From Phyllosticta citribraziliensis (Eukaryota), in the NCBI RefSeq assembly GCF_038025025.1, contig NW_027117342.1, forward strand, positions 1,364,001 through 1,428,000: a stretch of DNA of 64,000 bases, in the 5' to 3' direction. Below the pieces are notes generated by a model. The model worked only from the letters and a program-made list of their open reading frames with translations, was not told the origin of the DNA and did not search any database. Both the position numbers and the translations under genes were made by a program. Of this stretch, positions 12,321-60,523 are shown piece after piece (position 1 is the first letter of the stretch; the number at the start of each line of letters is the position of its first letter).

Positions 12321-14011
12321 ATGCCCCCCCTAAAGAGAAGCTGAAATTATAGGAATTAGTAGCTGTAGGCGCTTGCGTAGGTATAGACTTATAATGTATA
12401 ATAGTGGTAATTTAGTAATTTAAGTATTTTATATAGTTATAAAGTATAATTATTAGTCTAGGGCTACTACTATACTATCTCTTTTTCTATTACCATCTCT
12501 TTTACTATATAACCTATAGAAGGTTACTATTTTACTTAGCTATATTTAAAGCTCCCTATTAAAGTATATTATTACCCTAGTCTAATTTAGCTATGATCTA
12601 GTAAACTGACTATTATATATAAAGGTTCTAATAATTTAAATAATTTATACCTTACTAATAGTAAAGTAGATATTCCTAGCTGCTATGTACTTGATATATC
12701 TGCTGCTTATTATAGTCTAGTCTGTTAGGACTTATTGCTATTATATAAGAGTTATAGTGTTAAGTTATTATTGTGTGGTATTATTTGTAATCTATTATAG
12801 TTACTGCTTACTTAGAGAGCTGTTTTAGCTAGTAGTATCTATAAGGACTATTATATAGAGTCCTAAGGTAAGTAAACTTTAATTCTATCTCTAACTATTA
12901 CTAATTATTATCTAGGCTATTAAGTAGTATTATATATCTAGGTTTTACTGCTTTATTATCCCATCTTGCCAACTAATATAATTATAGAGGAGGATACTTA
13001 TATAAAGACTTAGTTAGGCCAGGCTTTACTTATTTAGCTAGGAATAGCTATAGGCTTATTACTTTACCTATAGTATACTATAGTATTAGGTTCTGCTTAA
13101 TTAGTATTATTAGTTATTATGCAAGGTTTATTATCTATAGCTATATAGCCTGCTACTAACTAGCCTATTATGCTATATTGCTGCTAGTTTACTATCGCGC
13201 AGCCTGTTTTAGAGGAAGAAGGTAAAGAGCCTACTTATATATACTATTATTATAATCCTGCAGCTTATTAGGTTCTAGTAGCTGAGTACTTACTACCTGC
13301 TACTTTATATAATAGTAGTAATAGTGAGATTTATATTATAGTATCACCAGTTAGCTCTAATAAGGTGCCTATTAAGTAGGACTTTAAGTTGATACTTTAT
13401 ATCCCTTATAAGAATATAGAGAATATTATATAAGTAAGTTTATCTTACTAATATAAGGGATTCTTATCTAACTAACTATATAGGTATACCTTAGTGGTTC
13501 TAAAGTATAAGAGCGCACTAAGTGTATCTTAGCCTTAGGTAATAGTATACCTTACTTATATATTATAGTTTCTACTTAGCAATTTAACTACTTATTAGTT
13601 AAAACTTAAGCTAGCTTGTGCGATACTTTTCTTATCTAGTATACTAGAATTAATAACTCTATTAGCTATACTAAGTATTATAATAATACTAATACTTGCG
13701 CATTTATTAGTTATTACTACCTACCTAGTTTCTTATAGGGCTGCTGCGCTAACTACCTTTAGGGTATAGGTAACTTAGACTATACTATTAGTAACTTAAA
13801 GGGTGCCAAGCCGCCTACTTATTATAAGAGGTATAAAGATAAAATTTATATAGAGGAGTTCTAGAACTTATACTACTAAGCTAGGGTAGAGGATTAAACT
13901 AATTAGGCTTTAGCTAAGTAGGATATCCTACCTAATAAGCTAGAGGATCTAGAAGAGACTATCTTATATAATAATAGTTATAATAAGAAGAAGGGAAAAG
14001 GAAGGAAGTAA
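12321..14011 (+). pseudogene. Family B antisense accessory gene (copy B1)
   Basis: Collinear with 50771-52462. Introns at 12868-12915 and 13434-13483; GGCTGCTGCGCTAAC (GCCAN) at ~13739. Confidence 0.7.
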
Positions 14012-15764: not shown

Positions 15765-18700
15765 TATTATAACTTGCAGATTTCTTATTATACAGGTAAG
15801 GGCTAAAGGCAAACTACTAGAGAATATATATATATCTTAATTAAATATAATAAGTTAAAAGAATAAAATATAAAAGATACTTACTACCTATATATTTCCT
15901 AGTCCTTCCTTTATACTATTCTACCTCTTATCCTTTATATAAGGGTCCTTAGTTATTATTAGGTAAGTTATAAAGGTGAGGTGTTAATAGGCTATTATAT
16001 GGTATCTGCCTAGGGCTATAGTGGCTGGTGCCAGGCTGTAGTGGCTGGTGCTAGGCTGTAGTGACTAGTACTAGCCTATAGTGGCTAGTGCTAGCCTGCG
16101 GGTTTTAGCCTAAGCTGTAGTAGGTAGGCTGCTACCTAAGGTGAGGCTCGTGCTTCCTATAACTACGCGATACTAGGTTTATCTATGCTGGCCCTAGTGC
16201 TTATATAGGCGCATATATGCCTATTATAACATGCCCCCCCTAAAGAGAAGCTAAAATTATAGGAATTAGTAGCTATAGGCGCTTATATAGGTGCAGACTT
16301 ATAATATATAGTAGTAGTAATTTAGTAATTTAAGCATTCTATATAGTTATAAAGTATAATTATTAGTCTAGGTCTACTACTATACTATCTCTTTCTATTA
16401 CTATCTCTTTTACCGCGCGACCTATAGAAGGTTACTATCTTACTTAGCTATATCTAAAGCTCCCTATTAAAGTATATTATTATCCTAGTCTAATTTAGCT
16501 ATAATCTAGTAAACTAACTATCGCGCGTAAAGGTTCTAATAATTTAAATAATTTATACCCTACTAATAGTAAAGCAGATATTCCTAGCTACTGCACGCTT
16601 AATATATCTACTACTTATTATAGTCTAGTCTATCAGGACTTATTACTATTATATAAAGGTTATAGTATTAAGTCATCATTATACAGCATCATTTATAATC
16701 TATTATAGTTACTACTTACTTAGAGAGCTGTTTTAGCTAGTAGTATCTATAAGGACTATTATATAGAGTCCTAAGATAAGTAAACTTTAATTCTATCTCT
16801 AACTATTACTAATTATTATCTAGGCCATTAAGTAGTATTATATATCTAGGTTTTACTACTTTATCATCCTATCTTACTAACTAATATAATTATGGAGGAG
16901 GACACTTATATAAAGACTTAGTTAGGCTAGGCTTTACTTATTTAGCCAGGAATAGCTATAGGCTTATTACTTTACCTATAGCATACTATAGTGTTAGGTT
17001 CTACTTAATCAGTATTATTAGTTATTATATAAGGTTTGTTATCTGTAGCTATACAGCCTGCTACTAACCAGCCTATTATGCTGCATTACTACTAGTTTAC
17101 TATCGCGCAGCCTATTTCAGAGGAAGAAGGTAAAGAGCCTACTTATACGTACTATTATTATAATCCTACAGCTTATTAGGTTCTAGTAGCTAAGTACTTA
17201 CTACCTACTACTTTATATAACAGCAGTAATAGTGAGATTTACATTATAGTATTACTAGTTAGCTCTAATAAGGCGCCTATTAAGTGGGACTTTAAGTTAA
17301 TACTTTATATCCCTTATAAGAATATAGAGAGTATTATACAAGTAAGTTTATCTTACTAATATAAGGGATTCTTATCTGACTAACTATATAGGCGCACCTT
17401 AGTAGTTCTAAAGTATAAGAGCGCGCTAAGTATATCTTAGCCTTAGGTAATAGTATGCCTTACTTATATATTATAGTTTCTACTCAGCAATTTAACTACT
17501 TATTAGTTAAAACTTAAGCTAGCTCGCGCGATGCTTTTCTTATCTAGTATACTAGAATTAATAACCCTATTAGCTATACTAAGTATTATAATAATACTAA
17601 TACTTACGCGTTTATTAGTTATTACTACCTGCCTAGTTTCTTATAGGGCTGCTGCGCTAACTGCCTTTAAGGTATAGGTAACTTAGACTGTACTATTAGT
17701 AACTTAAAGGGTACCAAGCCGCCTACTTATTATAAGAGGTATAAAGATAAAATTTATATAAAGGAGTTCTAGAACTTATACTACTAAGCTAGGGTAGAGG
17801 ATTAAACTAATTAGGCTTTAGCTAAGTAGGATATCCTACCTAATAAGCTAGAGGATCTAGAGGAGACTATCTTATATAATAATAGTTATAATAAGAAGAA
17901 GGGAAAAGGAAGGAAGTAAAGGGTAGAAAGTAAAGAAGAGGGAAGTAGGGGATAAGTAGTAAAAAGGAGAGACTAGAGAGTAGAAGTTAAGGTTAATAGT
18001 ATTTATATAAGGGTAGATAGTAAACTAATTAGTCTACTTTCTATATCTTTATAATATTTACTATAGGCCTAAGTAACTTATTTTATTATTACTTTCTATT
18101 TTAATCTATAGTTCTTCTTAGAGGAAGGCAGTCTTCTATTTTTCTAGATTTTTTAGTAGTCCTACTATAGTAGGGTATAATAAGTAGAATTCTTTAATTT
18201 TCTATAGTATACTACTAAAAGAACTTATATTATACTACTAGTTATCTTAGTTATATCTAGTCTATTTAACTTAATATTAAAGCTTCCTATATAAGACTTA
18301 ACTAGCTTAAATATAGTCTACTTCCCACTTAGGCTCGTCTTAAATAATCTTAGGTTCTAGTTTAGTATATTCCTAACTAGGAAGCTATTCTAGTTTAGCC
18401 TTATATAGCCTATTAGTATAGAAAAGGTTAACTATCTTTATATATAAGGGAAGATTAAGGATATAGGAGGATCCTTCTATTCCTATAATCTTAAAAGGTC
18501 TAGTATTAGGGAAGTCTAATTTAAGGTTTAGCTAATTAGTAGACCATCCTATTTTCTTAATATAGATATAATCTCTAACTGTAAAGTCTAGTATATGATG
18601 GTATTTATTAGCTTATTAGCGCATATACTCTTAGGATTTAAGAATGAGTTTCTTTATAAATTTAAAAGCTTCTTATCTTCTTTTTTATAGTGTTTATACT

Positions 18701-27000: not shown

Positions 27001-29779
27001 TCTACTAATATAGGAAATAATATAACCTATAATATTCTATTTAGTCTCCTCTACTATATCTTTAGTAAAGTGATTATAGTTTTATTTAATTTTATTTTAT
27101 ATAAGGAGGGTCTAGTATTTATATAAGGGGTCTTCTCTATTAGTAAGAAGAGGAGGATTAGGAACCTTACTACTTTAGTATTTCTTACTACTTAAAGATA
27201 AAGTAGAGGTTTTAGTAGTAGTTTCTCTTATATAGGTAGAAGGATCTTAAGAGAGGGTAATAGGTCTTAGGTACTAAACTAATAAAGAGGGCCTAATATA
27301 TCCTTCCCTTAGAACTTCCCTAAGTCTATTAGTATAGTTTAAGAGTATTTACTTAAGAGCCCAGTTCTACCTTCATATATAGTTTAGTTACTACTATACT
27401 TAAGACTTATTTAAGGATATAATCTTAGATTTAAATTAATTAATATCTAAGTATAGTACCTTTACAAACACCTCTATAACTAGAGCTTAAACTATATAAG
27501 TTAACCCTAGGTCTTAGGTATATTCTTTTACCTCTACTACTAGGACTAAGTAGAAATTATATAGGAGAATAGGGGTAGGTCCCCTCTTATTATTATTTAA
27601 TAAGTATCTAGTATTATATAAATCTTTAGTCCCTTTACACAAATCTTATTAAGTTGATTAACTAGTACTAATACCTTTAGTAGTACTAGATATATTAGCT
27701 TTATTCTTAGCCATACTATCTTTATAGTCTTCTACTTAGAATATCCCTTAAGTAGGTTATAGATAGGACACCTCCTAGATATTTATATACTACCCTATAG
27801 CCTTAACTAAAGACTTCTATAGTTAATATATACTTAATACTCCTTAGTCCTTAGATAACACTAATGCGCCTAATAAAGATAACTTAGGTTTACCAGGGAA
27901 AAGTAATAAGCAGTCTTATATAAGACTATAGCTATATATAACATTACTTAGGTTAAATATTATAATACCTTTATAGGTAAAGAAGTAGGATAGAGCTAAA
28001 ACTTAGAATAATCTTTTATATCTATTATAACTTATAGATTTCTTATTATATAGGTAAGGGCTAAAGGTAAACTACTAGAGAATATATATATATCTTAATT
28101 AAATCTAATAAGTTAAAAGAATAAAATATAAAAGATACTTACTACCTATATATTTCCTAGTCCTTCCTTTATACTATTCTACCTCTTATCCTTTATATAA
28201 GGGTCCTTGGTTATTATTAGGTAAGTTATAAAGGTAAGGTATTAATGGGCTATTATATAGTATCTACCTAGGGCTATAGTGGCTAATACCAGGCTATAGT
28301 AGCTAGTACCAGCCTATAGGTTTTGGCCTAAGCTATAGCAGGCTGCTGCCTGAGGTGAGGCTTGTACTTCTTATAACCGCGCAATGCTAGGTTTGTCCAT
28401 ACTGGCCCTAGTACTTATATAGGCGCGTATACGCCTATCGTAACAAGATTCTTATAGCTATTATTATCTAAAAAGGTAGTAGTATTATAATCTACTAATT
28501 TATTAGTAGTACCTAATATTTAATTATTATCTCCTAGGACTTACTATTCTTTACTAGTATCTAAGTTATACTATTTATTATTAATATTATAGTTAGATTT
28601 AGGTTCTAAGTTATAACTATTAATACTATCCTTATAAGTAGATAAGGCAGTTATATTCTTAGTTACCTTTATAAAACCTGGCTATATATTAAGTAGCAAT
28701 ATAGATCTTATTAAGAGTTTATTATTAGAAGGACTAAAGTTATTAGAACTATTAAGGTAAAGTAGGTTATAATCTAGTATTTCCTTATATAGTTTACTAC
28801 CTTTAATACTAATCTACTAGTTAATTAGGTCTATATACTCCTATAGACCCTCCTACTCTTTACTCTTACTAGTAGTATTATAATACTAATTATCCTCTTC
28901 CTTAATACTACTATTTATAGGAGACTTCTCTCTAGTATCTAGTATTATACCTTTCTATACTAGTAGTAATAGAATTATAGGAATACTAGATAGCTGAGGA
29001 TATAGGTCTAGTAGTAGAGGGAGTATAGTATTAAGATGCTAAGGTTATATAGTAGTAGAATTATAGGTTAATAGGCTGATAAAGAGGATAGAGGTAGCTA
29101 TTATAGAAGGTAATAAGTCTTAATACTAATAGGGAATTATCTACTAGGTCTAATAGGGCTAATTCTTAGTTATATAGTATCTATCTCTTAAGGTGTATAG
29201 TCCTGCCCTACTTAATTATTATAAAGGTAGAGGGTTAGTAGTATTATAGTAGTAGAAGGTAAGGTAGTAGTTTTTATAACTAGCTAATTATCCTCCTTTA
29301 TAGTCCTTAATATTTTATCTTCTAATACTTACTATCTACTAAATTATCTTCCCTCTCTTATTCTTTATACCTTACTAAAAGTCTATCTCTTAAGAAATAC
29401 CTCTCTTACTAATTAATAAATATACCCCCTTACTAGGAAATTACCTAGTATCCTACTCCTATTCCTTAATACTCCTATAGTTTACTCTCTTACTAAAATT
29501 AATAACTTTAAGCTAACTACCTATTAACTCCCTTTTTCTGGCCTATTACTTAGTATATATTAAAATTAAAATACCTAAATGCCTAGAATATATAAATATA
29601 ACTCTACTTAGTAGAGAAAGAGGGTAGCACCTAATCTATAGGCTAGAGGTTTATTAAGTCTAAGCTATAAGGCTCCTAATATTTAGGATATACCTTATTA
29701 TAGACTTTATTAGGAAACTCTATAATATCTTATAACTATTCCTTAGTAGATAGTCCTACCTATTATATTTTTAGTCTAT

Positions 29780-32700
29780 CTGCTTTATACTAGGTCTCCT
29801 TTTATAATTACTCTATTAATTTAGCCTGAGCTTTATTATTATTAGCTGGTATTACTTATTACTATATTTAATTCTTAGTAGTGGTATCTGTTATAGCCTT
29901 CTATCCTAGTAGTTAGTTATACTACTTATAAGTAATAAAGACCTTAATATTATTAATATAGTATGTGCTAATAGGTAATCCTAAATAAAGGTTAGTTAAT
30001 ATAATAGACTAGCCTCTAAAGTATACCTATAATACCTAGTATAGTCCTACCTATTATAGTTTAAGTTTCTTCCCCCTTTAATTATTAAGAGTATAGTATC
30101 TTAGTAATACTAAGTTGCCTTATAGTAGAGGTAGCTACTATATTATATCTTCTACTTATTAGGCTATCTTCTATTACTATACTAAGTACTTATTAAGTGC
30201 CTATTCCTAAATCTTATTAAGCTATATAAGCTATACTTTAAAATTAATAGCTACTATAGTCTTATCTACCTTGATATTATAGCTGCTAGCTTTAAATATA
30301 GCTTAGATAGAGTCTATAATAATTATAGATATTATATTAGGTTACTTATATTATTAAGGTTAAAATCTATAAAGAAGCTTATTAGGTAAGAATCTATATA
30401 TATAGGAAACTTATAAATTTAGTATATATATAATGTCCTTAAGGAGCGTGTCCTACTTATATATTTATTCTAATAATTCTTAAATATATTTAATAATAGT
30501 ATACTATACTATCTTAATATAGGATTCTATAAGGCCTATAGATTATAGATATTCTATATTACTATAAAGGTACTTAATCTTCCTTATATCTAGTAGACCT
30601 ATAAAGTCCTTTCTATAGAAATGTGAGCTATTATCTATATAGGTTACCTATATCTAATTAATAGGCTTAATAATAATATCTTCTAGATTCTTAATTATCT
30701 CCTTTACTATTACTCCTAATAATGCATAAATCTAGACCTTCTTAGTAAAATAGTTAACTATTATAAGGATATAGTAATTACCTTATACTATAATAGGAGT
30801 TAGGGGTCCTAGGTAATCTAGAGTAACTAAGTTAAGGGGTTATAGTTATATAACTAGAATAGTTCCTACTAATAGTTAGAGAGGTCTAGTTAGTTAATAT
30901 AAAGGATATAACTAAGTATAGTCCTAGGTATCCTTTAAGTAAGTTAGCTAGTAGTAGTATCTAATTAACTTTACTAGTATAGGGTTACTTCTAAAATAGC
31001 TATAAGAGTTATAGTATTTATATAATACCCTTAGTATATCTAGCTCCTTAATATACTAACTGAGTTTTCCCTTTTACTCTTTAAATATTAAGTAGGGTGG
31101 ACTGGTCCTAGGCTTAATAAGGGTAAAATACCTTACCTAGTAGTAGATTTTCCTTATATATATAGAATTTAAAGATATCCCCTCCTCTAACTTAGGTACT
31201 ATACCTATTAGCTTATATTAGATAATATCTCTATACTAGTAGTCTAATATTTAGGGGTCCTAATAGTCTAGTCTTCTAGTAATAGTATTATTAATAGTAC
31301 CCCTATTAATAGTAAATACTTAATGCTTAAAGCTATTATTAAAATTAAGCTTATTATATAGTTAGCTAATTTATAAGAGTCTATTAGCTATAATATTAAC
31401 TTATCCTAGGATATACTAAATATCTATATAGAATTTAAAGAGCCTATACTCCTATTATAAAATCCTACCTATTATGTCTAGTAAGTTAATTATATTAATT
31501 AAGGTAATATAATTAGTATATACCTTAATAGGGAATTTTAAGCCTATAATAAGCTAATATACTTCCTTAAGGTATTAAACTAATACTAGTACTTCTAATT
31601 TAGTAGTCTTATATTATATTTTAGTATCTAATAGGCTATAACTTATAAATATTACTACCTCCTATTACTCTAGTGGTATAGCTAGTATAGATGTGCTAAT
31701 AGGAACTATAGGAATCTAGAAGAATATGCCCCCTAATCTAGTCTTTAAGGTATTAATAGATAGGTAGTACTAGTATCTCTTATCCCTACCTACTAATATA
31801 ATATACTAGATTACTTCTTAGATCTTCTTAAATACCTATTAGTATGGCTTATACTATATAAATTCTTTAATAATCTACTTCTTCTTATACTTCTTCCCCT
31901 TTTCTAACTTATTAACTAGGACTATCTCTATAATAAGAGTGGTTTTAAGGATTTTAATAAGGTTGGCTCTTCTTAGAATATAATAGTATAAGAAAGGTAG
32001 AATATCTATAAATTACTTTAATTTAACTTTATTATATAGAGGTACCTAGTTATAGAAGGCTTTAACCTTATTAATAGAAGGCTAGTAACCCTTAGGTATC
32101 TTCTAAAATCCTAGAACCTTAATAGTACTATAGAAAAATCTTAACTTTTTAGGGTTTAGGGTTAGTTTAGCCTATACTATATAAGGGAAGTAAGCTTTAT
32201 ATAGAAAGTTATATAAGAAGTTAAAAGTTACTACTCCTCTAAAAATATTATTAATAAAGTAATAAAATACTAGGAATCTAGGTAACTACTAATTAAGAGG
32301 AGCTTTACTATATAGTCCTAGAATAAAACTAGTAACTAAGTCTATTAGCTTAGTATATATTACTAGAGTACTAGTTAGGCCTTAACCTATATATATATAG
32401 GTAAGTTAATTAAGAGTTTATTACGACTTGCAGATTTCTTATTATACAGGTAAGGGCTAAAGGCAAACTGCTAGAGAATATATATATATCTTAATTAAAT
32501 CTAATAAGTTAAAAGAATAAAATATAAAAGATACTTACTACCTATATATTTCCTAGTTCTTCCTTTATACTATTCTACCTCTTATCCTTTATATAAGGGT
32601 CCTTGGTTATTATTAGGTAAGTTATAAAGGTGAGGTGTTGATGGGCTATTATATAGTATCTGCCTAGGGCTATAGTAGCTGGTGCCAGGCTATAGTGGCT

Positions 32701-34655
32701 GGTGCTAGCCTGTGGGTTTTAGCCTGAGCTATAGTAGGCTACTGCCTGAGGTGAGGCTTGTACTTCTTGTAACTGCGCAACGCCGGGTTTGTCTATACTG
32801 GCCCTGGTACTCGCGTAGGCGCGTGTACGCCTATCGTGATAGAGTTAAGGTAAATATAGTCTTATATATATTACTTAGAATAATAGGGACTGCCTAATAT
32901 CTATTAGAATAATCTATAGTAAATATATACTTATACTATAACTAGCTAAGCTTATTAAGTATTAGCTTAATTTACTTTATAGGATAAGTAGACTTCCTAG
33001 TTATATTATTAAGGGTATAAAAGGTATAGACTATCTATAAATCTCTAGACTTCTTATATAGGAACTAGGTTTTAGTAGACTATTCTAATACTATATATTT
33101 TAATACTCTAGCCTTTACTAACTTAATAAGGTTATTAGTCTGCTAATACTCTTCTTTTAGAGTATATAGAGGTAGCTTTATAGTATAGGGCTTTACCTAA
33201 GTATATATTAGGATATAATATTTAATGAGGTTAGTATATAGTATATCCCTAATCTTCTATATAAATATATCCTACTAAGTCTATAATATTATCCCTACCT
33301 TCTTTAATTACTATATATCTAGGATTAGATCTCCTAAGATACTAGGGTATTTATCTAGCTATTCTTATAATACTATATTACTAGGAGGTTATTAGATTTT
33401 ATATTAGAATTTATATAGGTATTAGCTAATAGGAAACTAATTCTAGATTATAAATATTAAAGTATCTTTATTATTCTCTACCTCTATATAGAAAACTATA
33501 ATAGTATTATTATACTATAAAAGTACTCTATTATAAATCTTATTAAAACTAATATCCTTTAATAGTAATACTAGGGGAAGCCTATATTAGAATACCCTTA
33601 TCTTTCCCTTAATATTAAGGTTAGGGAAGTAACCTTCTTAGAACCTCTTATTAGGTTTCTCCCTATTATAGACCTTAGTAGTATAAGTATACTCTATTAG
33701 CTCCTAGTACTTAATATATACTTATTTAGTTAGGTATTTAGAATTAAGGTACTTATATTTTCTAATTTATATAATTTTATAATATTAAAGTCTCTTCTAA
33801 TAGTACTACCTATAGGCTGGCTAATAGTTATTCTATAATTTATTAAGAGGTTAACTATTATACTATTTCTCTTTTACTATATATAAGTATAGGTCTAGGT
33901 AGTTTTCCTATAGGGTAATATTAATTAGGTATTTTAATAGTAATAGTAACTCTCTATCCTAATCTATCTTTAAGAGATACTACTAGGTTAGAACTAAGGC
34001 TACTACTACTATATATACTACTATTATTAGGTTATCTTACTTATATATAGGAAGTCTAACTAGTAGGAGATTCCTACTTACTATAACTATAGTAGATGTA
34101 TTAGTTACTTTAATCTCTATATCTAATATAGGCTATTAAGTCTTAATAATATTATCTAGGGAATAGTAATAGATAATATCCTTCTTATTAATTCCTACTA
34201 TACTAATTATAGTAGCTAGGGGTTCTTTACTCTCTATAGAGTTTACTTTTATAGTTATAAATCTTACTAACTTAAGGGATGCTACTATAGATAGGCTAGT
34301 AAATTTATAGTACTTAACTAGAAAGGGCTATTATATAGGGGGTGGTTAAGATGCCTTAGGGTATAATATTATTAATTTAGTATTACTTACTAGGTCTTAC
34401 TCCTTAATACTAACTACTCCTAGCTTAGTAGTTAGTAATATATATTTCCTAAATATTTAAAATAGTAAGTATCCTCTAGATTACTATTACTTAAGTTATA
34501 GTTTTTAGTATCCTTACTTATATTATAGCTAAAACTATTAGGACTAAAGCCTAACTTAAGGAGTAACTTTAATAAATATATCTCTACTTCTTCTAGGGTA
34601 ATATTATTATTATCTCCCTCCTCCTTATTACTACTATCCTCCTTAAGTAGGTCTA
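29780..34655 (-). pseudogene. Family A pol (RT-RNase H-integrase), RIP-degraded, interrupted by a solo LTR
   Basis: RT, RNase H and integrase motifs in Gypsy order on minus; GPY/F-like KLEPRWAGLYQV near 30040-30070. Boundaries approximate. Confidence 0.85.
32419..32841 (-). mobile_element. Family B solo LTR (423 bp) inside the RT domain of element A
   Basis: Full LTR with no internal sequence, flanked by TSD GAGTT at 32414-32418 and 32842-32846. This is the signature of LTR-LTR recombination. Confidence 0.95.
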
Positions 34656-35582
34656 GTAGTGTCAGCCTAGGGCAGGACCTTAGGAAAACAACTCTACTAG
34701 TAAAGACTCCTTAATAAAAACTATCTCCTAGAAAATTATCTAGTTTAGTAGGGGGAGATTAATTATATAACTAATTATATAATTTTATATAAATACCTAG
34801 TTTTTCTAAAGTACTCTATTTAGTAATTCTAAATTTATAGCTCTATTCTTTATTCTATAATAACCTTCTATAAATAGCTCTTTTAATCTTTCTATTATTT
34901 ATATTTCCTAGTAGGGACTAAGATTTATTTTCTCTAAAATAGTATAGAGTTTTTAGATAGGGTTTTTAAGTTTAAATAAGTAGAAAAAGGTATTAAATAA
35001 AGGAGAGAAAATCTATACCTTAGGTAGGAACTTTTAGTATAGAAAGAGTATATTTATTTTTTACTCTCCTCTCTCTAGACTAAGTCTATAAGGCTAGACT
35101 ATATACTTCTTCCTTAATCCTTATATATTATATAATATTAGTGAGCCTAAGGTAGTCTCTAAGCTAAGTCTACTCTACTATCTTATATCTTACTATAGGT
35201 CTATCTAGCTATCCCTTAGCTATCTCTTATATAGGTTAAATTAAGAAGAATAAAATATAGAAGTATAGGTTATTATAGAAAAGAAGTTTATAAAATTAAA
35301 TTATTAGTACTAAAGTTTAAAAACTATATATAAAGTACCTATTAACTATTCTTAGCCTATTTCCTAATCTTATATAGAAGGGAAGAAAAATAAGATAAGC
35401 TAAAAGTCTATACTATAAGTAGGGGTATTAAGAAATAAAAATAAGTAAAGAGAAAGTAGAGACTTATAAATTCCCCTAGGATAATACCTATTAATAGGGT
35501 TTACTATTATTAATAAAAAGAAAAACTCTAAACTAGTTCTAAGTTTTTAACTACTAAGACTAGTAAGTACTAAAATAAAGTA

Positions 35583-48800: not shown

Positions 48801-50348
48801 TTAAAGTTACCCTTAATCTTTATTATACTTCTATTTTTATAGTAAAGATTACTATTTATAGTATTTTTAAAAAGGATATTATTAAGATTATAAGTAAGGC
48901 TAAAATTCCTTAATATTTTTAGTATAGTTTTCTAGTCTAGATTTGCCCCTTTAAATATACTAAGTAGGGTACCTAGTATACTATTCCCCTAGTATAGTTA
49001 CTAATTTTATCAGCCTAGGGTAGGACCTTAGGAAAATAACTCTACTAGTAAAGACTCCTTAATAAAAACTATCTCCTAGAAAATTATCTAGTTTAGTAGG
49101 GGGAGATTAATTATATAACTAATTATATAATTTTATATAAATACCTAGTTTTTCTAAAGTACTCTATTTAGTAATTCTAAATTTATAGCTCTATTCTTTA
49201 TTCTATAATAACCTTCTATAAATAGCTCTTTTAATCTTTCTATTATTTATATTTCCTAATAGGGACTAAGATTTATTTTCTCTAAAATAGTATAGAGTTT
49301 TTAAATAGGGTTTTTAAATTTAAATAAGTAGAAAAAGGTATTAAATAAAGGAGAGAAAATCTATACCTTAGGTAGGAACTTTTAGTATAGAAAGAGTATA
49401 TTTATTTTTTACTCTCCTCTCTCTAGACTAAATCTATAAGGCTAGATTATATACTTCTTCCTTAATCCCTATATATTATATAATATTAGTAAGCCTGAGG
49501 CAGTCTCTAAGCTAAGTCTACTCTACTATCTTATAGTAGTTTATATAGGGGTAGGAATATTAGTATATTATCTAACTTATTACTACTAAAAAAGAATAGC
49601 TTAATATTTATCTTCTCCTTAATAATTATCTCTAGTAGGTTCTAGGGAAATATGGTATAGTTTCTAGGAATATTAACTAGATAACTATCTAGTCCCTTAA
49701 TAGTTAATATTTATACCTTATAATTCTTATTTACTATAGTATAGTATAGCTAAGGTTAACTAAGTAAAATGCTCTATAGGTTAGCTTAATTAGTAACCTA
49801 TACCTAGACTAAGAAGTCTGTATTTATAACTATAATAATAAAGTAAATAAAGTAATATAGGTAATTAGGGCCCTTAGTAGTATATATCTAATAGGGTATA
49901 TATACTATATAGACTAGTAACTATATTATCTAGACTATCTTTCTAAGGATAAGGTTTACTATAGTACCTATATTAATAAGGACTTCTCTTATTTACTAGA
50001 GATAAGAATCTAGGCTATTACTTAGTTAGTATATAATAATAGTAATATAGAAGTTCTTAATATATAGGTTACTAATACTATTATTATAGAATAATATAGT
50101 CTCCTTATAGAACTAAATATCTATAGCCTTATCTAGGACCTTCTTCTTCTTCCTAGTCCTCTTAATAGCTAGGCCCTTTACTAATAAGGTATATACCTTA
50201 GGTAATAATTAGAAGAGGTACTTTATATAGAAGTCTAGGGATAATTATATCTTATTAATTACCTTTATAAAGTTATAAGTAGGCTAGTTTAGTATTATCT
50301 AGATAATTAGTAGTTCTATAGCCTTCTTCTTCTTCTTAAGCTTACTTA

Positions 50349-53300
50349 TATTACGACTTGTAGATTTCTCGTTATATAGGTAAGGGCTAAAGGTAAACTG
50401 CTAGAGAATGTGTATGTGTCTTAATTAAATCTAATAAGTTAAAAGAATAAAATATAAAAGATACTTACTGCCTATATATTTCCTAGTCCTTCCTTTATAC
50501 TGTTCTACCTCTTGTCCTTTATATAAGGGTCCTTAGTTATTATTAGGTGAGTTGTGAAGGTGAGGTGTTAATGGGCTATTATGTAGTATCTGCCTAGGGC
50601 TATAGTGGCTGGTGCTAGGCTATAGTGGCTGGTGCTAGCCTGTGGGTTTTAGCCTGAGCTGTAGTGGGCTACTGCCTGAGGTAAGGCTTATGCTTCCTAT
50701 AACTGTATAATACTGGGTTTATCTATACTGGCCCTAGTGCTTATATAGGTGTGTATATGCCTATTATGACATGCCCCCCCTAAAGAGAAGCTGAAATTGT
50801 AGGAATTAGTAGCTGTAGGTGCTTATATAGGTGTAGACTTATAATATATAATAGTAGTAATTTGGTGATTTAAGCATTCTGTGTAGTTATAAAGTATAAT
50901 TATTAGTCTAGGTCTACTACTATACTATCTCTTTCTATTACTATCTCTTTTACTGCATAACCTGTAGAAGGTTGCCATCTTGCTTAGCTATATCTAAAGC
51001 TCCCTATTAAAGTATATTGTTGCCCTGGTCTAATTTGGCCATGATCTAGTAAACTGACTATTATATATAAAGGTTCTAATAATTTGAATGATTTATACCC
51101 TACTAATAGTAAAGTAGATATTCCTGGCTGCTATGTACTTAATATATCTGCTGCTTATTATGGTCTAGTCTATTAGGACTCATTACTATTATATAAGAGT
51201 TATAGTATTAAGTTATTATTATATAGTGTTGTTTGCGATCCATTATAGTTACTGCTTACTTAGAGAGCTGTTTTAGCTAGTAGTATCTATAAGGACTATT
51301 ATATAGAGTTCTAAGGTGAGTAAACTTTAATTCTATCTCTTTAGACTATTACTAATTGTTATCTAGGCTGTTAAGTGGTATTATATATCTAGGTTTTACT
51401 GCTTTATCATCCTGTCTTGCCGACTAATATAATTGTAGAGGAGGATACTTATATAAAGACTTAGTTAGGCCAGGCTTTACTTACTTAGCTAGGAATAGCT
51501 ACAGGCTTGTTACTTTATCTATAGCATACTATAGTGTCAGGTTCTACTTAATTAGTATTATTAGTTATTACGTAAGGTTCATCATCTATAGCTGTATAGC
51601 CTGCTACTAACTAGTATATTACGCTGTATTGCTACTAGTTTACTGTCGCACAGCCTGTTTTAGAGGAAGAAGGTAAAGAGCCTATTTATACGTGCTATTA
51701 TTATAATCCTGTGGCTTGTTAGGTTCTAGCAGCTAAGTACTTACTGCCTACTACTTTGCATGATAGCAGTAATAGTGAGATTTATATTATAGTATTACTA
51801 GTTAGCTCTAATAAGGCGCCTATTAAGTAGGACTTTAAGTTGATACTTTATATTCCTTATAAGAATATAGAGAGTATCACGCAAGTAAGTTTATCTTACT
51901 AATATAAGGGATTCTTATCTGACTAACTATATAGGCACACCTTAGTAGTTCTAAAGTATAAGAGCGCGCTAAATACATCTTGGCCTTAGGTAATAGTATG
52001 CCTTACTTGTATATTATAGTTTCTGCTTAGTAATTTAACTACTTATTAGTTAAAACTTAAGCCAGCTTGCGTGATGCTTTTCTTATCTAGTATACTAGAA
52101 TTAATAACCCTATTAGCTGTACTAAGTATTATAATAATACTAATACTTGCGCGTTTATTAGTTATTACTACCTGCCTAGTTTCTTATAGGGCTGCTGCGC
52201 CAACTGCCTTTAGGGTATAGGTAACTTAAACTATACTATTAGTAACTTAAAGGGTGCCAAGCCGCCTGCTTATTATAAGAGGCGTAAAGATAAAATTCGC
52301 ACAGAGGAGTTCTAGAACTTATACTATTAAGCTAGGGTAGAGGATTAAACTAATTAGGCTTTAGCTAAGTAGGACATCCTGCCTAATAAGCTAGAGGATC
52401 TAGAGGAGACTGTCTTATATAATAATAGTTATAATAAGAAGAAGGGAAAAGGAAGGAAGTAAAGGAAGGGATAGTAGGGAATAAGTAATAAAAAGGAAAG
52501 ACTAGAGAGTAGAAGTCAAGATTAATAGTATTTATATAAGGGTAGATAGTAAACTAATTAGTCTACTTTCTATATCTTTATAATATTTACTATAGGCCTA
52601 AGTGACTTGTTTTATTATTACTTTCTCTTTTAATCTAGGGTTCTTCTTAAAGGAAGGTAGTTTTCTATTTTTCTAGATTTTTTAGTAGTCCTACTATAGT
52701 AGGGTGTAATAAATAGAATTCTTCAATTTTCTATAGTGCGCTGCTAAAAGAACTTATATTATACTACTAGTCATCTTAGTTATATCTAGTCTATTTAACT
52801 TAGTATTAAAGCTTCCTATATAAGACTTAACTAGCTTAAATATAGTCCACTTCCTACTTAGGCTTATCTTAAATAATCTTAGGTTTAGGTTTAGTATATT
52901 CCTAACTAGGAAGCTATTCTATTTCAGCCTTATATAGCCTATTAGTATAGAAAAGGTTGACTATCTTTATATATAAGGGAAGATTAAGGATATAGGAGGG
53001 TCCTTCTATTCCTATAATCTTAAAAGGTCTAGTATTAGGAAAGTCTAATTTGAGGTTTAGCCAATTAGTAGACCATCCTGTTTTCTTAATATAGATGTAA
53101 TCTCTAACTATAAAGTCTAGCGCGCGACGGTATTTATTGGCTTGTTAGTATATATACTCTTAGGATTTAAGAATAAGATTCTTTATAAATTTAAAAGCTT
53201 CTTATCTTCTCTTTTATAGTATTTATACTACTATACAAGCCATTTTCTCTAGTTGCTAGGGGGTTTCAGTTCTTTATTACTAGTTATAGTGTAATTAAGG

Positions 53301-56300
53301 GGAATATCCTAACTTAATCTTAAAAGGTAAAAGTCTAGTAGCTTTATAGGGAAGTGTTACTTGTGCAAGGTCTATTAATAGTAGAAGATTAGACTAATCA
53401 TTCTAAAAGTAATTAATAAAAGGTCTTAATCTTTATATAAGATGCTGATTAATAATCTCCATAATACTATTAGTCTAAGAGTAGTAGGATAAGTTAAAAT
53501 GCTACTCTATACCAGTCAGCTTATACAGTTTATTTATAAACGCTAAGATAAACTGAGGGCCTTAGTTAGATAGGATAGACTTAGGGTTTCTATAAATATA
53601 GTAGATATATTTATAAAAGAGCCTAGAGACTCCTTTAGTATTAATCTTCTTTATATAAGGCAAGCTGAAGGTTCTTTAACTTAACTAGTCTATAATAACT
53701 AGGATTGTATTATAGCCTTTTTAGTCTTTAGGCATCTCTTTAAAATCTATAGCTAGGTATTACTAGGGTTAAGTAGGAATCTCTAGGGGTTATAAAAGGC
53801 CTAGGTCTTTATTATAAAACTCTTTTATTTAGTAGCAAATATAGCATCCTTACCTGTAAATATCAATCATATAATTTATAGCTAGCTAATAGTAATGTTA
53901 CTTAAGGAGTTTTCACATCTTTATAATACTAGAATAGGCAGTTATATAGGTGGTATATAAAGCATCAAGCATTTTTATATAGAGGTTATTGTGATCTAGT
54001 ATAAAGAGGGTGCTATATTATAGTAAAAGACCATCTTTTAGTTCCTAACTATTTCTTTATTTAAGGTCTTTTAAGAGGGCTTTCTATCTCTAGAGTTCTA
54101 ATTTAGAATCTTCCTAGTTTATATAGAGGAGTTTATCTAAAAATAATACTAGAGAAGAAAGTTCTTATTCTAAAATAGAAAGAGGGATAATAGTCTCTAG
54201 TAGAATAAGGCATATCTCTTATACAGCCCTTGCTTTTTCTTTTTAAGTCTTTAGGTCTTCTTATTTTTAAGTAAGGTAATTAGTAATGATATTTTCCTTT
54301 CCTAGTTAATAGGAGAATTATACGTGGAATTCTATAAAAAACTTAGACCATCTAGCTTGTTATTAATTAAGTTGTTATTTAGTAGAGTAGTACTCTAATA
54401 CCTAATAGTCTATAATTGCGAGAAAAGGTTTTTTAAGGCTAATAAGTATTAGTCTCTATTCTTCTAGTCTATTCTTAATAGCCAGCAGTTCTTTATTTAA
54501 AATTCTATAATAAAGTTCTGCATCTACTATTGCCTTAAAGTAGAAGGCTACTAGTTTCTAATTATATAAAGGTTATTAGAGCTGCGTTAAAACGCCTATA
54601 GTAACTCTATTACTTATATTAGTCTCTATGTGAGTGTTAAGAGTAGGGTTATAGTTAGCTAGGAGTGTATTACTATATATTAGCTTCTTAAGTTGCTAAA
54701 TTGCCTCTTCTTTTAGGGGTCCTAGTTGTTGCCATTTTGCCTTAGAGTATAGTTTCTCTAATAGTTAGCTAATTTATCTATAGTTAGGGAGAAATCGTTA
54801 GTAGAAATTATAGAAACCTAGGAAGGATTAAAGAGCTTTAAGGGTTTTTAGTATTAGCTAGTTTTATATAGGTTCTACCTTATCTGGGTCTATTTAAATG
54901 CCTTCTATAGAAATGATATATCTAAGAAACTTTATATAAGTAACTAAAAACTCACTCTTCTTTAAATCTACCTATAGTCCTACTTTTTATAGTCTTACTA
55001 GTACTTTTTTTACTTGTTCCTTATACTCTGCAGGGTTTTTAGAGATAATAAGTATATCATCTATAAAAGCCATAATAAAGTTGTCTAAATACTTAAAGAG
55101 AACCTGGTTAATAAAATATTAAAAGGCTGCTGGTCTGTTACTTAATCTAAAAGGTAAGATATAGTATTTAAATAACCTATATCTTATATAGAAAGTGGTT
55201 TTATCTTCAGAATCCTTAGTAAGATAGATGTAGTAGAAAGCTTATTAAATATCAAGCTTAGTATAAATCTTGCCCTTTCTAATATACTAAAGCAACTCTA
55301 TAATAAGAGGGAGGGGGTGTAAATCCTTAGTAGTTTATTTATTAAGCTATTAGTAGTCTATGTAAAATCTCCATCCCCTACTAGGCTTTTTTACTACCAG
55401 AATAGGAGAAGTATAGGTAGTAAAGCTTTTAGTAATAAAGCCTTTCTAAATATTCTTAATAATATACTCTTTTATAGCCTTAAGCTGTTCTAGAGACATT
55501 CTATAGAGAGGGCTAGGTGGAAGCTCTAGTAGACTATTATATATAAGAGATATTTTATGATCAACTCCTATATAATATGGTAGTAGCTTGTTAGACTCTA
55601 TTTTAGAAAACACATCTTGAAATTCCTTATAAGCAGCTAGTAGCTTAGAAGCTAATAATTCCTTAGTTTCTTTATCTTTAAGAGCCACTTAAACTTATAT
55701 AAGGTTAATAGTATAGATCTCTATTAGCGCAACTTGTATTTTATAGATAGAAAGCTTAAAAGCATCTTAAGTTTAAAATTCAATTCCCTTAATAACCTAT
55801 ACTAAAGGAAGAAGGCGTTTATTAAAGTTTTTATCTCTATAGTCTATATCTACTTAATATTCTTTCTGCAGTTTATTGCTTTATATAGAGACTTTTAGTA
55901 GGTATAAAAGATGCTAAAAGGACTAGTTAACTAGTAGCTATCTCTAGACTAGTTTGTATTATTTATAGTCTAGGAGGACATCGTGCTAGTTAAAAAACTA
56001 TCACCTAAGAATCATGTTGTTACGGCTAATATTATAAATAAAAGTATAAGTAGAAACTATTTAATCTTAGAAATAGAGTTAAAGATAAAAGTAAAAATTA
56101 ACTTTCTTATTTATATATTAGTTAAACCTAGTAATATCGAGCCCTTTACCTATTATTCTCTTTTTTACAGCACCTATAGACTAGAGAGTCAGTAGTAGCT
56201 TAGGGTGAATAAAACTTATACTACTAGTACTAGTATTAGCTAGGGCATAAATTTTTAAGGCACGGCTATTAGATATAATTAAGGTTCGTATAGTAAAGGG

Positions 56301-58581
56301 TACACCTCTAATAAAGTAACTAAGATTTATATAAGAACCTTTAATATGTATTACTCTAAGTTTAGACCTAAGGCAGGAGACTTTACCTAGGCCTTATTAT
56401 TTTCTAATAAAGACTAATCTCCTTTATTTATATAGATATCTTTAGTACTTTCTTCTTCTACTAACTCTATTACCTTTATCTCTAGTTATAGGCATTGCCT
56501 CTATAAATAGCTAAACTAGCTGCAGTAATTATATAGTCTAATCTCTATACAGACTTCTACTTTACCTTTACAGGTTATATCATATAAGGGAGCCCTAGAT
56601 ATAGATTATGCCTAGGTATAACTAGAAGATAAAGCACTTATACCACCTAAGGTAGTTATCTTTACTTATTCTTATTATCTCTTCTTTACTCTTTCCTTAT
56701 ATAATATAAGTATTAGTTTTCTATAGTTAAAATAGTAGTCACTAAGACTTCAAGCAATAGGGTAGGCTTATTAGAGGTACTTATAAAAGTTAATATCCTT
56801 ATCTTACTCTATAGTAACTATATAGGTTTAAAGGAGAGGATCTATTATATTATAAAAGTCCTCTTTCTACTATTCTTAGGGAAGATCTACATCTAAGGCT
56901 AATTATATAAAGTTTAATTAAAACTTCTAAAGGTCTATAGGAATATAGTATATAAGAGAGTATAACTACTTCTTTATATCCTTATATTTATATAGACTCT
57001 AAAGGAGGTTATCTAGGAATTTAAAGATATCCTTATCTAGAGTGACTTTATTAGCCTTTATATAAGAAGTAAGGAAAGGAGTTAGGTGATATAAGACTTC
57101 TCTACTAATATAGGAAATAATATAACCTATAATGTTCTATTTAGTCTCCTCTACTGTATCTTTAGTAAAGTGATCGTGGTTTTATTTAATTTTATTTTAT
57201 ATAAGGAGGGTCTAGTATTTATATAAGGGGTCTTCTCTATTAGTAAGAAGAGGAGGATTAGGAACCTTACTACTTTAGTATTTCTTACTACTTAAAGATA
57301 AAGTAGAGGTTTTAGTAGTGGTTTCCCTTATATAGGTTAGAGGAGGTCTAAGAGTCCTTATTACTCTACTAGTAGAAGGATCTTAAGAGAGGGTAATAGG
57401 TCTTAGGTGCTAAGCTAATAAAGAGGGCCTAATATATCCTTCCCTTAAGGCTTCCCTTAGTCTATTAGTATAGTTTAAGAGTGTTTACTTAAGAGCCTAG
57501 TTCTGCCTTTGCGCGCGGTTTAGTTGCTGCTATACTTAAGACTTGTTTAAAGATGTAATCTTAGATTTAAATTAATTAATATCTAAGTGTGGTACCTTTA
57601 TAAACACCTCTATAACTAGAGCTTAAATAGTATAAGTTGACCCTAGGTCTTAGGTATGTTCTTTTACCTCTACTACTAGGACTAAGTAGAAATTATATAG
57701 GAGAATAGGGGTAGGTCCTCTCTTATTATTATTTAATAAGTATCTAGTATTGCGTGAATCTTTAGTTCCTTCGCGCGAATCTTATTAGGTTAATTAACTA
57801 GTACTAATACCTTTAGTAGTGCTAGATATATTAGCTTTATTCTTAGCTATACTGTCTTTATAGTCTTCTACTTAGAATGTCCCTTAAGTAGGTTATAGAT
57901 AGGACGCCTCCTAGATGTTTATATACTGCCCTATAGCCTTAACTAAAGACTTCTATAGTTAATACGTGCTTAATACTCCTTAGTCCTTAGATGATACTAA
58001 TGCGCCTAATAAAGATGACTTAGATTTACTAGGGAAAAGTAATAAGTAGTCTTATATAAGACTATAGCTGCGCATGACATTACTTAGGTTAAATATTATA
58101 ACACCTTTATAGGTAAAGAAGTAGGATGGAGCTAAAACTTAGAATAATCTTTTATATCTATTATAACTTATAGATTTCTCATTATATAGGTAAGGGCTAA
58201 AGGTAAACTGCTAGAGAATATATATATATCTTAATTAAATCTAATAAGTTAAAAGAATAAAATATAAAAGATACTTGCTATCTATATATTTCCTAGTCCT
58301 TCCTTTATACTATTCTACCTCTTATCCTTTATATAAGGGTCCTTAGTTATTATTAGGTAAGTTATAAAGGTAAGGTGTTAATAGGCTGTTGCGTAGTATC
58401 TGCCTAGGGCTGTAGTAGCTGGTGCCAGGCTATAGTGGCTAGTACTAGCCTGTAGGTTTTGGCCTAAGCTGTAGCAGGCTGCTACCTAAGGTGAGGCTCG
58501 TGCTTCCTGTAACTGTATAATACTAGGTTTATCTATACTGGCCCTAGTACTTATATAGGCGCGTGTACGCCTATTATAATA
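50349..58581 (-). mobile_element. Family B chromovirus copy B4 (8233 bp), appears the least RIP-mutated full copy
   Basis: 423-bp LTRs at 50349-50771 and 58159-58581. TSD ACTTA at 50344-50348 and 58582-58586. gag-pol spans ~58080-52598. ORF-track entry 55446-55688 is a surviving pol fragment. Confidence 0.95.
50771..52462 (+). pseudogene. Family B antisense accessory gene (copy B4): two introns, low-complexity Arg/Ser-rich N-part, C-terminal DUF3716-like Cys cluster
   Basis: Introns 51316-51366 (GTGAGT..ACTAAT..TAG) and 51885-51934 (GTAAGT..GACTAAC..TAG). The last exon, 51935-52462, reads DAFLIQxTG...CTKC...F..C..LPGF..GCCANCLWG....CT...KKKGKGRK*. 5' end unresolved. Confidence 0.75.
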
Positions 58582-60523
58582 ACTTATATCTACTAGCTTA
58601 TCTTTATTAAGCTATATAGGACTTAAATAGCTAGGACTAGTAGTAGGTTAGAATAGTATCTCTAGAGGGTTAGTAAATTATATATACTTAGCTAGTATAG
58701 GTTAAGGTATCTAGTTCTACTACTAGCTAGCTAGCTACTAGATAGTACTATAGCCTAGAGGTTAGAATCTTAGTAGTAATAATAGGTCTAAGTTACTCTA
58801 GAATATTAACTTCCTATTAGCTAATAAGAAGGGTAGCTAGTCTTATAGGTAGGACTTCTATATAGATAGGATAGGTAGAGTACCTATTTAGGCCCTTATA
58901 AAGGGGTTACTAGTAGCTAACTATTAAGGCTTCTAAGGAGCCTGGCTATTTAATACCTACTATAGAAATGGGTTATATTACTTAGATTAGGGAACTTTAT
59001 TATTAATATTACTTATATTATTAACCCTAGCTCTCTTTATAGTATAGACTTCCTCTTTAGTTAATTCTCTTTAAGCCTCTATAGTAAAACTCTCTTTATT
59101 AAGTAGCTCTCCCTAGACTATATTAACTCCTAACTACTATACTTTATAAAAGTAGTAGTTTAAAATATTATAGATCTTAGGTAATACTACTCTACCTTAT
59201 ATTCTATATAGGGAGTACTCCTCTATAAAATAGGTATTACTAGTATTAGGATTCTACTAGCTATTATAGGTTTCTAGAAATTTATATAATAGTTAGTTAT
59301 TATTCTAATACTATTTAGCTTTATACCTATACCTCTCTTTATATATCTTCCTAGTATATAGATACTTATTACTATAGTAGTAGTTAGGTTTATCTTCCTA
59401 GTAATTAAAGTATAGTAGCTCTAAATAAGCTTCTTAGGGTTATATAAACTAATTTAGGTACTATTACTATTAAGTTAACTAAGTATCTTAGGCTAAGAAC
59501 TATTTCCTTAGGTACTACTATTAAGTACTTAGTTAATAGGAGTTAGTCTACTAACTACTTAGCTAGAAAGAATTAGGTTACTAGTATAAATTACTCTACT
59601 AAGGATTTAAGCCTAGTTACTAGCCTCTACTACCTTAGAATTATAATTCTAGAGGTAGTTAATTATTCTACTAAAAACCTAAAGAAGCCTGGTTAGTCCT
59701 ATTATTTATTCTCTAAATATAAGGGTATACTTACTAGGTATTATTACTAGTTATATTTATTATAATAACTTACTTAAGAGCCTTATATATTAGACTAAGT
59801 TAAGCTCTAATAGTACTACCTATTACCTAAGCCTATTATTTATCCTTAATTATATACTATATCTTTTAAGTTTATTCTAAGGCTAGGCCTCTAGATATAG
59901 GGTAAATAATATCCCTAATAATTATAACTATATTATTAAATATTACTAGGCCTCCCTATCTAGTACCTCTCTTCTACCTAGAATTACTTTAAACCTATAT
60001 TAATACTAGTCTACTTATAGTATAGTCTTTAAGATTTTTTATAAAGTATTTAATAACTACCTCTAATATACTAGTACCTATAAGCTTAATAATCTTCTTA
60101 GACTTAGTAATATATTCCTCTAGAGGTATTCTACCTTAATAAAGTATAGTAAAATCTTAGTATACTTATTTTACCTTATACTAGTTCTAGGATAGGAAAT
60201 ACTTATATAGATAATTATAAGTAGTCTTAATATTATTATAGATACTATTATCTAGGCTATAGAAATACTCCTTAGCTATACCTTTAAGGTAATTCTCTAA
60301 GAATAGTACTTATATAATATCTTATTCTTTAGTTAGGAGATATTAGTAAATAATTTAGGATATAATTATATATTATTAAGTCTATTATTTAGTATCTTCT
60401 CTATAATAGCCTAAGAAAACTATTACTATAATAGGTATAGGAGTAGATACTACTATTCTAGCTAAATATTTAATAAGTTTATACTATTCCTTTTTCTTAT
60501 ATACCTTCTCTTCTTCTCTCTAG

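Follow-up and report, generated by a model that had tools for sequence, protein, structure and literature searches.

The DNA examined here, 64,000 nucleotides from Phyllosticta citribraziliensis (assembly GCF_038025025.1, contig NW_027117342.1, positions 1,364,001 to 1,428,000; hereafter the window), holds an AT-rich block of 52 kb with a GC content of 23-33%, flanked by GC-rich DNA (54-61% GC). Comparison of the window with itself recovers one family of long terminal repeat (LTR) retrotransposons of the Ty3/gypsy type, 8.2 kb long and present in three copies, which we call A, B and C. Our subject is a stretch of about 1.7 kb that lies between pol and the 3′ LTR of these copies and that, on the strand opposite to gag-pol, carries two intron-like units and a Cys cluster resembling the DUF3716 family (PF12511). 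It is heavily mutated in every copy, and we argue below that it is probably the relic of an antisense accessory gene of the retrotransposon family. The coordinates of all features are collected in Table 1.

The element is a Ty3/gypsy LTR retrotransposon, with two LTRs, a target-site duplication, a polypurine tract and the pol domains RVT_1, RT_RNaseH and rve (the last below threshold) following one another in this order in a single minus-strand frame. In the translation begun at 58160, where X takes the place of each stop, the RVT_1 match spans residues 923-1081; the rve match appeared only when a sub-segment of 551 residues was scanned. Across the family the LTRs measure about 420-465 bp in the self-comparison, and the 3′ LTR of copy C begins TGTCATAATAGG on the minus strand, immediately after the polypurine tract. 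Since the pol domains lie on the minus strand and the polypurine tract adjoins the start of this LTR, gag-pol is read from the minus strand and the LTR at 50349-50771 must be the 3′ one; because gag-pol occupies the minus strand, the plus strand of the accessory stretch is the antisense one. An earlier note on this DNA had called the element a chromovirus. The C-terminus of pol does look chromodomain-like by eye, and Pfam gave no Chromo match either in the 551-residue C-terminal part of pol or in a 66-residue segment of it, which leaves that label unverified rather than excluded. Copy B is nested in copy A, the 5-bp duplication CTAGT standing cleanly on either side of it (15760-15764 and 24097-24101). 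A solo LTR that belongs to this family, and whose identity with the remaining LTRs is 89-91%, lies at 32419-32834.

The end of pol near 52650 leaves about 1.9 kb up to the polypurine tract, which exceeds what such elements need. Most of this space in copy C is taken by the accessory stretch (1692 bases at 50771-52462), and the earlier note was right that the stretch recurs in all three copies, at the identities given in Table 1. It was equally right about the strand: RVT_1 and RT_RNaseH match on the minus strand, and the motif and the two intron-like units are found on the plus strand. The putative gene and pol would accordingly end tail to tail, some 190 nt apart.

Two canonical introns of about 50 nt had been claimed for this stretch. 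As a description of intron-like sequences this holds for the second unit, which is intact in all three copies, and for the first unit in copies C (donor GTGAGT) and A (GTAAGT). Copy B reads ATAAGT at that place, its donor having been lost by a G>A change of the kind made by repeat-induced point mutation (RIP); the ancestral donor was GTGAGT. The first unit measures 48 nt in copies A and B against 51 nt in copy C, and the three-copy alignment places the 3-nt length difference inside it, as stated in the earlier note. A strict donor-branch-acceptor pattern occurs nine times in the 52-kb block, and five of these occurrences are the units themselves, the other four lying elsewhere. In simulations of 1692 bases under a second-order Markov model (Markov-2), two or more strict units on one strand were obtained in 33 of 5000 cases (0.7%).

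The Cys cluster lies in what would be the last exon. Its core, GCCANC, has survived in copies C and B, and the readings of the individual copies are DAFLI*YTR, CTKY or YTKY, FISY and GCCANCL*G (GCCANYL*G in copy A). The first Cys is preserved in copy C, and the Cys that follows the core after five residues in copy B only. Thus GCCANC and parts of the exon motif given in the earlier note are present, and its Q, G, W and two of its Cys are back-inferred by reversing RIP changes rather than observed. The acidic patch and the basic KKKGKGRK tail were correctly reported and precede a TAA stop. A purine-rich, low-complexity tract of the plus strand (AAG/GGA-rich, 52433-52510) spans the tail and continues beyond the stop; since it does so, the tail is weak as a nuclear signal. 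This tract is placed between the two convergent gene ends.

Table 1. Features of the retrotransposon copies and their surroundings in the window, with the natural DUF3716 gene used for comparison (last row, coordinates of its own contig).
Feature	Position	Strand	Remarks
Copy C, full length, 8.2 kb	50349..58581	-	self-comparison; junction sequences
Target duplication of copy C, ACTTA, 5 bp	50344-50348 and 58582-58586		junction sequences
3′ LTR, copy C	50349..50771	-	89.5% identity with 58159-58577
Polypurine tract	50772..50785	-	CTTTAGGGGGGGCA on the minus strand; direct reading
Accessory stretch, copy C	50772..52462	+	antisense to gag-pol; putative three-exon gene relic
Intron-like unit 1	51316..51366	+	AAG|GTGAGT ... 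ACTAAT ... CTAG|G; 51 nt in copy C
Intron-like unit 2	51885..51934	+	GTAAGT ... ACTAAC ... TATAG; 50 nt
DUF3716-like Cys cluster	52061..52234	+	C-x2-Y-x11-Y-x8-GCCANCL*G-x5-C/Y
GCCANC core	52190-52207	+
KKKGKGRK tail and stop	52436..52462	+	TAA at 52460-52462; preceded by acidic patch
Chromodomain-like C-terminus of pol	52689..52886	-	by-eye judgement of the translation
Integrase core, sub-threshold	53496..53771	-	Pfam rve, E 0.0042, 17.8 bits against a cut-off of 32.6
RNase H domain of pol	54327..54713	-	Pfam RT_RNaseH_2, E 9.7e-11; RT_RNaseH, E 1e-10
Reverse transcriptase domain of pol	54918..55394	-	Pfam RVT_1, E 1e-19, 71.5 bits
5′ LTR, copy C	58159..58581	-
Copy A, in two parts	11898-15788 + 24097-28438		interrupted by copy B
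Accessory stretch, copy A	12321..14011	+	91.6% identity to 50771-52462
Copy B	15765-24096		self-comparison
Accessory stretch, copy B	16231..17919	+	90.8% identity to 50771-52462
Left-flank open reading frames with Pfam domains	7268-9262 and 4797-6017	+ and -
Natural DUF3716 gene, contig L017	1385-2476	+	three exons; introns of 46 and 53 nt

Any reading of the stretch has to reckon with the damage that it has suffered. Over the 1694 columns of the alignment of the three accessory stretches, 1483 are identical, 86 differ as C/T, 118 as G/A and 2 by other substitutions, with 5 gap columns; 204 of the 206 substitution differences are therefore C/T or G/A. The context is likewise telling, with 68 of the 86 C/T columns standing before A and 104 of the 118 G/A columns after T. 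The copies carry the signature of RIP and were practically identical before it. For this reason, the agreement among them and the position of the 3-nt indel (51341-51343) within an intron are uninformative on selection. The only other indel is one of 2 nt at 50931 in copy A; its two inserted bases (TT) also occur in one contig of sequencing run X5, so that the variant is common to another data set. Per 176 codons, the last exon contains 13 stops in copy C, 12 in copy A and 11 in copy B, and all 13 of copy C are TAA or TAG and in every case explicable by RIP. In none of the three copies is the gene still functional, and no expression from them is possible. A de-RIP consensus, one of the checks proposed in the earlier note, could be built from these three copies only; it restores few residues, stays at 37% GC and still has many stops. 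Three other DNA sequencing runs likewise yielded short contigs with RIP-type variants of the accessory stretch (146, 168 and 8 pieces), and neither a spliced nor an intact form was among them. One contig from these data joins 52280 to 52407 (side 21) and another joint switches strand; both were set aside as repeat artefacts by their appearance.

The identity of the Cys cluster was approached through a natural gene. The nine-residue motif of the window, rendered as a degenerate DNA pattern (G-C-C-A-N-C-[LF]-x-G), was used to scan metagenome contigs, which gave 46 loci, and 64-100 residues around each match were scanned against Pfam. For 43 of the 46 there was nothing at E<=0.01. The sole loci to pass were L014 and L017, the same gene on two contigs, which match PF12511 with 36.4 bits; the clean exon of L017 reaches 36.7 bits (E 4e-9, cut-off 22). 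The link that the earlier note drew between a CxxC...GxCANC pattern and DUF3716 is thereby borne out. In the Atlas resource the L017 protein falls within DUF3716 clusters of Ascomycota, and its weak structural neighbours there, a lead at most, are Zn(2)-C6 proteins (TM 0.49-0.51). Its skeleton is C-x2-C-x9-C-x8-GCCANCLQG-x4-C or, in fuller form, C-x2-C-x9-C-x8-G-x-C-x-N-C-x7-C-x2-C. Counted from the first Cys of the CC pair, the spacing becomes C-x2-C-x9-C-x9-C-x3-C-x7-C, with a further Cys after x2, an arrangement reminiscent of the six-Cys Zn(2)-C6 cluster, its loops being longer; to judge by this spacing, DUF3716 may be a divergent binuclear zinc cluster. Two word-indexed searches with the natural exon returned 514 and 49 candidates, none of them matching, so that no family alignment could be built, and AlphaFold2 run on the exon without an alignment gave an unusable model (mean pLDDT 45.4).

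The window and the L017 gene share the GxCxNC core that characterizes DUF3716 proteins, GCCANCLQG in L017 standing against GCCANCL*G in the window. BLASTP pairs YLPSFLXGCCANCLXG of the window with HLPDFFSGCCANCLQG at 11 of 16 identities, 8 of which are there by construction; beyond these eight pattern-fixed residues, the two agree at H/Y-L-P-x-F just before the motif. The differences H>Y and Q>stop are changes of the RIP type. We examined the upstream flank (45 codons of the window, 39 residues of L017) by an anchored local alignment that permits the reversal of C>T and G>A changes. With no penalty on reversals, the score of copy C was reached by 194 of 4000 null positions and that of the three-copy consensus by 137 of 5000; with a penalty of 1 these counts fell to 54 of 4000 and 46 of 5000, and with a penalty of 2 the consensus score was reached by 19 of 5000. 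The skeleton was tested separately by asking for a Cys, or a Tyr derivable from Cys, at five non-core positions with a slide of up to 2 residues. Each copy scores four out of five, a value attained at 584 of 66,544 null positions (0.9%), and a RIP-tolerant form of the skeleton pattern has a single occurrence across all six frames, which is at the accessory locus. The last Cys of the L017 skeleton is missing from the window and two loops are longer there, by 2 and 1 residues. As to the core itself, TGY codons make up 0.49% of the trinucleotides in the RIPed DNA, and GCCANC would be expected 2.4e-7 times in its 67,120 unique positions (GxCANC, 4.9e-5 times). Together, the RIP-aware flank and skeleton tests lend moderate support to a resemblance with DUF3716.

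Because a rare DUF3716 core motif, a Cys/Tyr skeleton with its flank and two canonical introns are found together on the same strand, we read the stretch as a former antisense gene. From these sequence features it appears likely that the stretch is the relic of a former gene of one kind or another. The narrower reading, which we favour and hold to be somewhat more probable than not, is that this was a genuine antisense accessory gene of the retrotransposon family, with at least two spliceosomal introns and a DUF3716-type Cys cluster in its last exon. What the earlier note had observed is thus partly confirmed, and what it made of the observation partly supported.

A number of observations weigh against this narrower reading, and several of them speak at the same time for one of its rivals. 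In the first place, the L017 gene, the one verified relative, is an ordinary three-exon cellular gene that adjoins a kinase-like gene in an ordinary neighbourhood, outside any retroelement, and its introns stand at positions other than those of the window's units. We could place neither a start codon nor a promoter in the accessory stretch. These points, and the identity of the copies before RIP, which removes any sign of selection on the stretch, would all suit a host DUF3716 gene or gene fragment that was captured in antisense by an ancestor of the family and then spread as neutral cargo. Conserved antisense aORFs are described at exactly this position in several plant families and in the fungal element Boty (PMC7264820), and RIP-type variants in three other DNA runs indicate that the stretch is not private to one insertion; both counterpoints remain compatible with neutral cargo. 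Of the alternatives, this one fares best, and we regard it as unlikely.

In the second place, searches begun from the window sequence fail. No copy reaches the gathering score of PF12511 (22 bits), and no family at all was reported by Pfam for the exon (as 2 proteins), for the six frames or, at E values up to 10, for 68-residue segments of the three copies, so that the family assignment made in the earlier note finds no direct match here. A word-indexed protein search with the exon gave 11 candidates, none at E<=10, and phmmer against 1.84 billion representatives gave 2 matches, neither related to the accessory gene; both were rejected as repeat proteins in which GEANCLKSLGDL-type repeats mimic CANCL.G.GNL. 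The failure against PF12511 is made sharper by a chance metagenome locus, L046 (1547-1846, plus strand), where a stop-riddled frame attains 17.6 bits (E 0.0036) from HGCCANCLHGSRH alone. Much of the score of this short model evidently sits in the core motif, which counsels caution over weak DUF3716 calls; the motif alone can draw PF12511, yet the window's version of it stays under the reporting filter. Scans of viral contigs were no more productive: the motif pattern matched 4 loci, none of them in frame, the spacing pattern 28, none resembling DUF3716, and a pol fragment gave 7 pattern matches, of which none was confirmed. A sequence search of the PDB found only a TetR regulator at E 0.091. 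We give the failed Pfam, word-indexed and phmmer searches with the window's own sequence little weight, since the same element, having undergone RIP, loses its own domains as well: its chromodomain-like segment finds no match, rve drops to 17.8 bits and RVT_1 stands at 71.5 bits.

The statistics and the frame add further points of this kind. Under plain BLOSUM62 the flank similarity is not significant (the score being reached by 259 of 4000 null positions for copy C and 533 of 5000 for the consensus), and in the comparison with copy C shuffled seeds reach the observed score in 175, 69 and 46 of 1000 cases for the plain matrix, penalty 0 and penalty 1, respectively. The RIP-aware and skeleton tests were designed post hoc, use a single family member and overlap one another. 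The CTGCTGC core is a simple repeat, which makes the assumption of independence doubtful and the computed rarity of GCCANC overstated, and two skeleton positions are Tyr in all copies, derivable from Cys via TG>TA. No open frame is conserved among the three copies, damage for which RIP accounts; copy A has its 2-nt insertion; and in the last exon of copy C the claimed frame contains 13 stops (176 codons), where a neighbouring frame contains 10 (175 codons). As a test of frame, however, we rejected stop density, since the known pol frame fails it (79 stops in 898 codons, against 70 in 898 for one frame of the opposite strand). Stop density being uninformative in RIPed DNA, the frame and the phase-0 junction can be neither confirmed nor refuted by it.

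The absence of any Pfam or database match for the window itself, the plain-matrix result, the stop counts and the repeat nature of the core would equally fit a non-coding 3′ region of RIPed, TA-rich DNA in which accident produced the GC-rich island GGCTGCTGCGCCAACTGC and a pair of strings resembling introns, to be picked out afterwards by a reader looking through 64 kb for familiar features. RIP can itself generate strings such as GTAAGT and CTAAC, and the AT-rich block has four of these units elsewhere. Such an accident would have had to bring together on one strand a motif, a Cys/Tyr skeleton and a pair of intron-like units that are each near or below the 1% level, and the motif leads to a true DUF3716 gene with a common flanking LP-F; we consider it quite improbable. 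Least probable of all is the insertion of a DUF3716-bearing mobile element into the ancestral 3′ end, the composite then being amplified, for which the DUF3716 genes of the REP9 DNA transposon of Zymoseptoria (IS3EU type) offer a model (PMC8232023), as the six frames of the stretch contain no transposase or other family (terminal inverted repeats and internal target duplications, blurred by RIP in any case, were not specifically searched), and the rest of the window shows no similarity to the stretch, a six-frame tblastn giving low-complexity noise only (best E 0.006), so that no second family in the window carries the gene.

Beyond the retrotransposon family, the RIPed DNA between the copies contains a direct repeat of 526 bp with 97.9% identity (34662-35187 and 49010-49535), far less diverged than the family itself. 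The left GC-rich flank holds ordinary genes, among them an open reading frame with the SPA ('stabilization of polarity axis') domain (E 1.4e-40) and one with an EF-hand (E 1.7e-7), and for an open frame of 812 residues (1-2436, minus strand) the Pfam scan gave no family.

If the stretch was indeed an antisense accessory gene, the manner in which LTR elements replicate offers an explanation for its introns. Lying opposite to the genomic RNA, the gene would have splice signals that are not read there, and the introns would be copied into each new insertion. Transcription would begin at a promoter within or close to the 3′ LTR and proceed inward. Expression from the 3′ LTR, a nuclear site and an action against silencing, as put forward in the earlier note, go further than the sequence evidence. 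We infer that the gene was translated and that its product, zinc- or DNA-binding, served the element: the six-Cys-spaced cluster of the last exon presumably bound zinc, and the product may have been a small DNA- or chromatin-binding Cys-cluster protein that acted on the element or its surroundings, a role that would parallel those proposed for brtn of Boty and for the plant antisense aORFs. A far bolder generalization, which we put forward as speculation and think rather unlikely, would make DUF3716 a DNA-binding module akin to a Zn cluster and associated with transposons, one taken up time and again by both classes of fungal mobile elements. In the present family it would be an intron-bearing antisense gene driven from the 3′ end, whose protein binds the element's own LTR or chromatin and so tunes transcription or blunts genome defence, and many of the cellular DUF3716 genes of Pezizomycotina would be domesticated or escaped descendants.

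For this genome the matter has little importance, since the three copies are dead. Were the relic real, a fungal LTR retrotransposon would have an antisense accessory gene with an identified domain, DUF3716; this family, which extends across the Ascomycetes, would be tied to mobile elements of a second class, the REP9 DNA transposon representing the first; and LTR binding and an effect on transposition or silencing would become testable wherever intact copies exist.

Several known systems resemble this arrangement in one respect or another. HBZ of human T-cell leukemia virus type 1 (HTLV-1), likewise an antisense gene at the 3′ end, is thought to be driven by the 3′ LTR and has a spliced form; it comes from a human retrovirus and encodes a basic leucine zipper protein, so that its likeness to the window gene is one of layout only. 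As regards the domain, REP9-1 and REP9-2 of Zymoseptoria tritici are DUF3716 genes reported on the IS3EU DNA transposon (PMC8232023), and thus members of the family are described as travelling on a transposon there; in the window, by contrast, Pfam gives the copies no score, and the putative gene is carried by a retrotransposon, in antisense orientation. Recombinant NCU05718 of Neurospora crassa, a protein with no annotated DNA-binding domain, is reported to bind TTAGGG duplex DNA directly (PMC4650311), and its orthologue in Fusarium graminearum, PSC58, is described as a DUF3716 protein (PMC10776026). This indirectly suggests a DNA-binding role for the accessory product, the NCU05718 evidence concerning the whole protein and not the DUF3716 domain. 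In the accessible parts of the literature on DUF3716 and PF12511 we found no link to an LTR retrotransposon, and the DUF3716 papers found carry, to the same extent, no mention of Boty or brtn.

As regards the layout, extra open reading frames in fungal chromodomain-bearing gypsy elements are on record: a survey depicts fungal chromoviruses bearing an 'additional ORF of unknown function' (Novikova et al. 2010, PMC2864245), for which the legend gives neither orientation nor family. Closer in position and orientation are the antisense aORFs that Grande1, RIRE2, Retand and PvRetro13 carry between pol and the 3′ LTR (PMC7264820). The extra region of the window element lies in the corresponding interval and likewise opposite to pol, the location by which aORF-3R elements are recognized; these elements differ in having plant hosts, Retand is named as belonging to a non-chromovirus lineage (PMC7264820), and the likeness is again one of layout. 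Closest of all are the Boty-like chromodomain elements of Botrytis cinerea and Sclerotinia sclerotiorum, for which an antisense gene, brtn, is described between pol and the 3′ LTR (PMC7264820, PMC8365987, PMC4227169, citing Zhao et al. 2011, Virology 417:248). A Boty-like element is reported to encode gag, RT, IN and CHROMO domains in addition to brtn (PMC4227169), and BcGypsy1 is drawn with it (PMC8365987). Here, as in the window, a fungal Ty3/gypsy element bears one extra antisense gene between pol and the 3′ LTR; the window differs in that its host has GC-rich genes (57-61% GC in the flanks) and all its copies are RIP-dead, and brtn was compared by layout only. The earlier note had set this arrangement against standard chromoviruses with gag and pol only; among fungi it is not new. 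The layout is already in print for Boty, and the point that is possibly new is the domain identity of the gene that the element carries.

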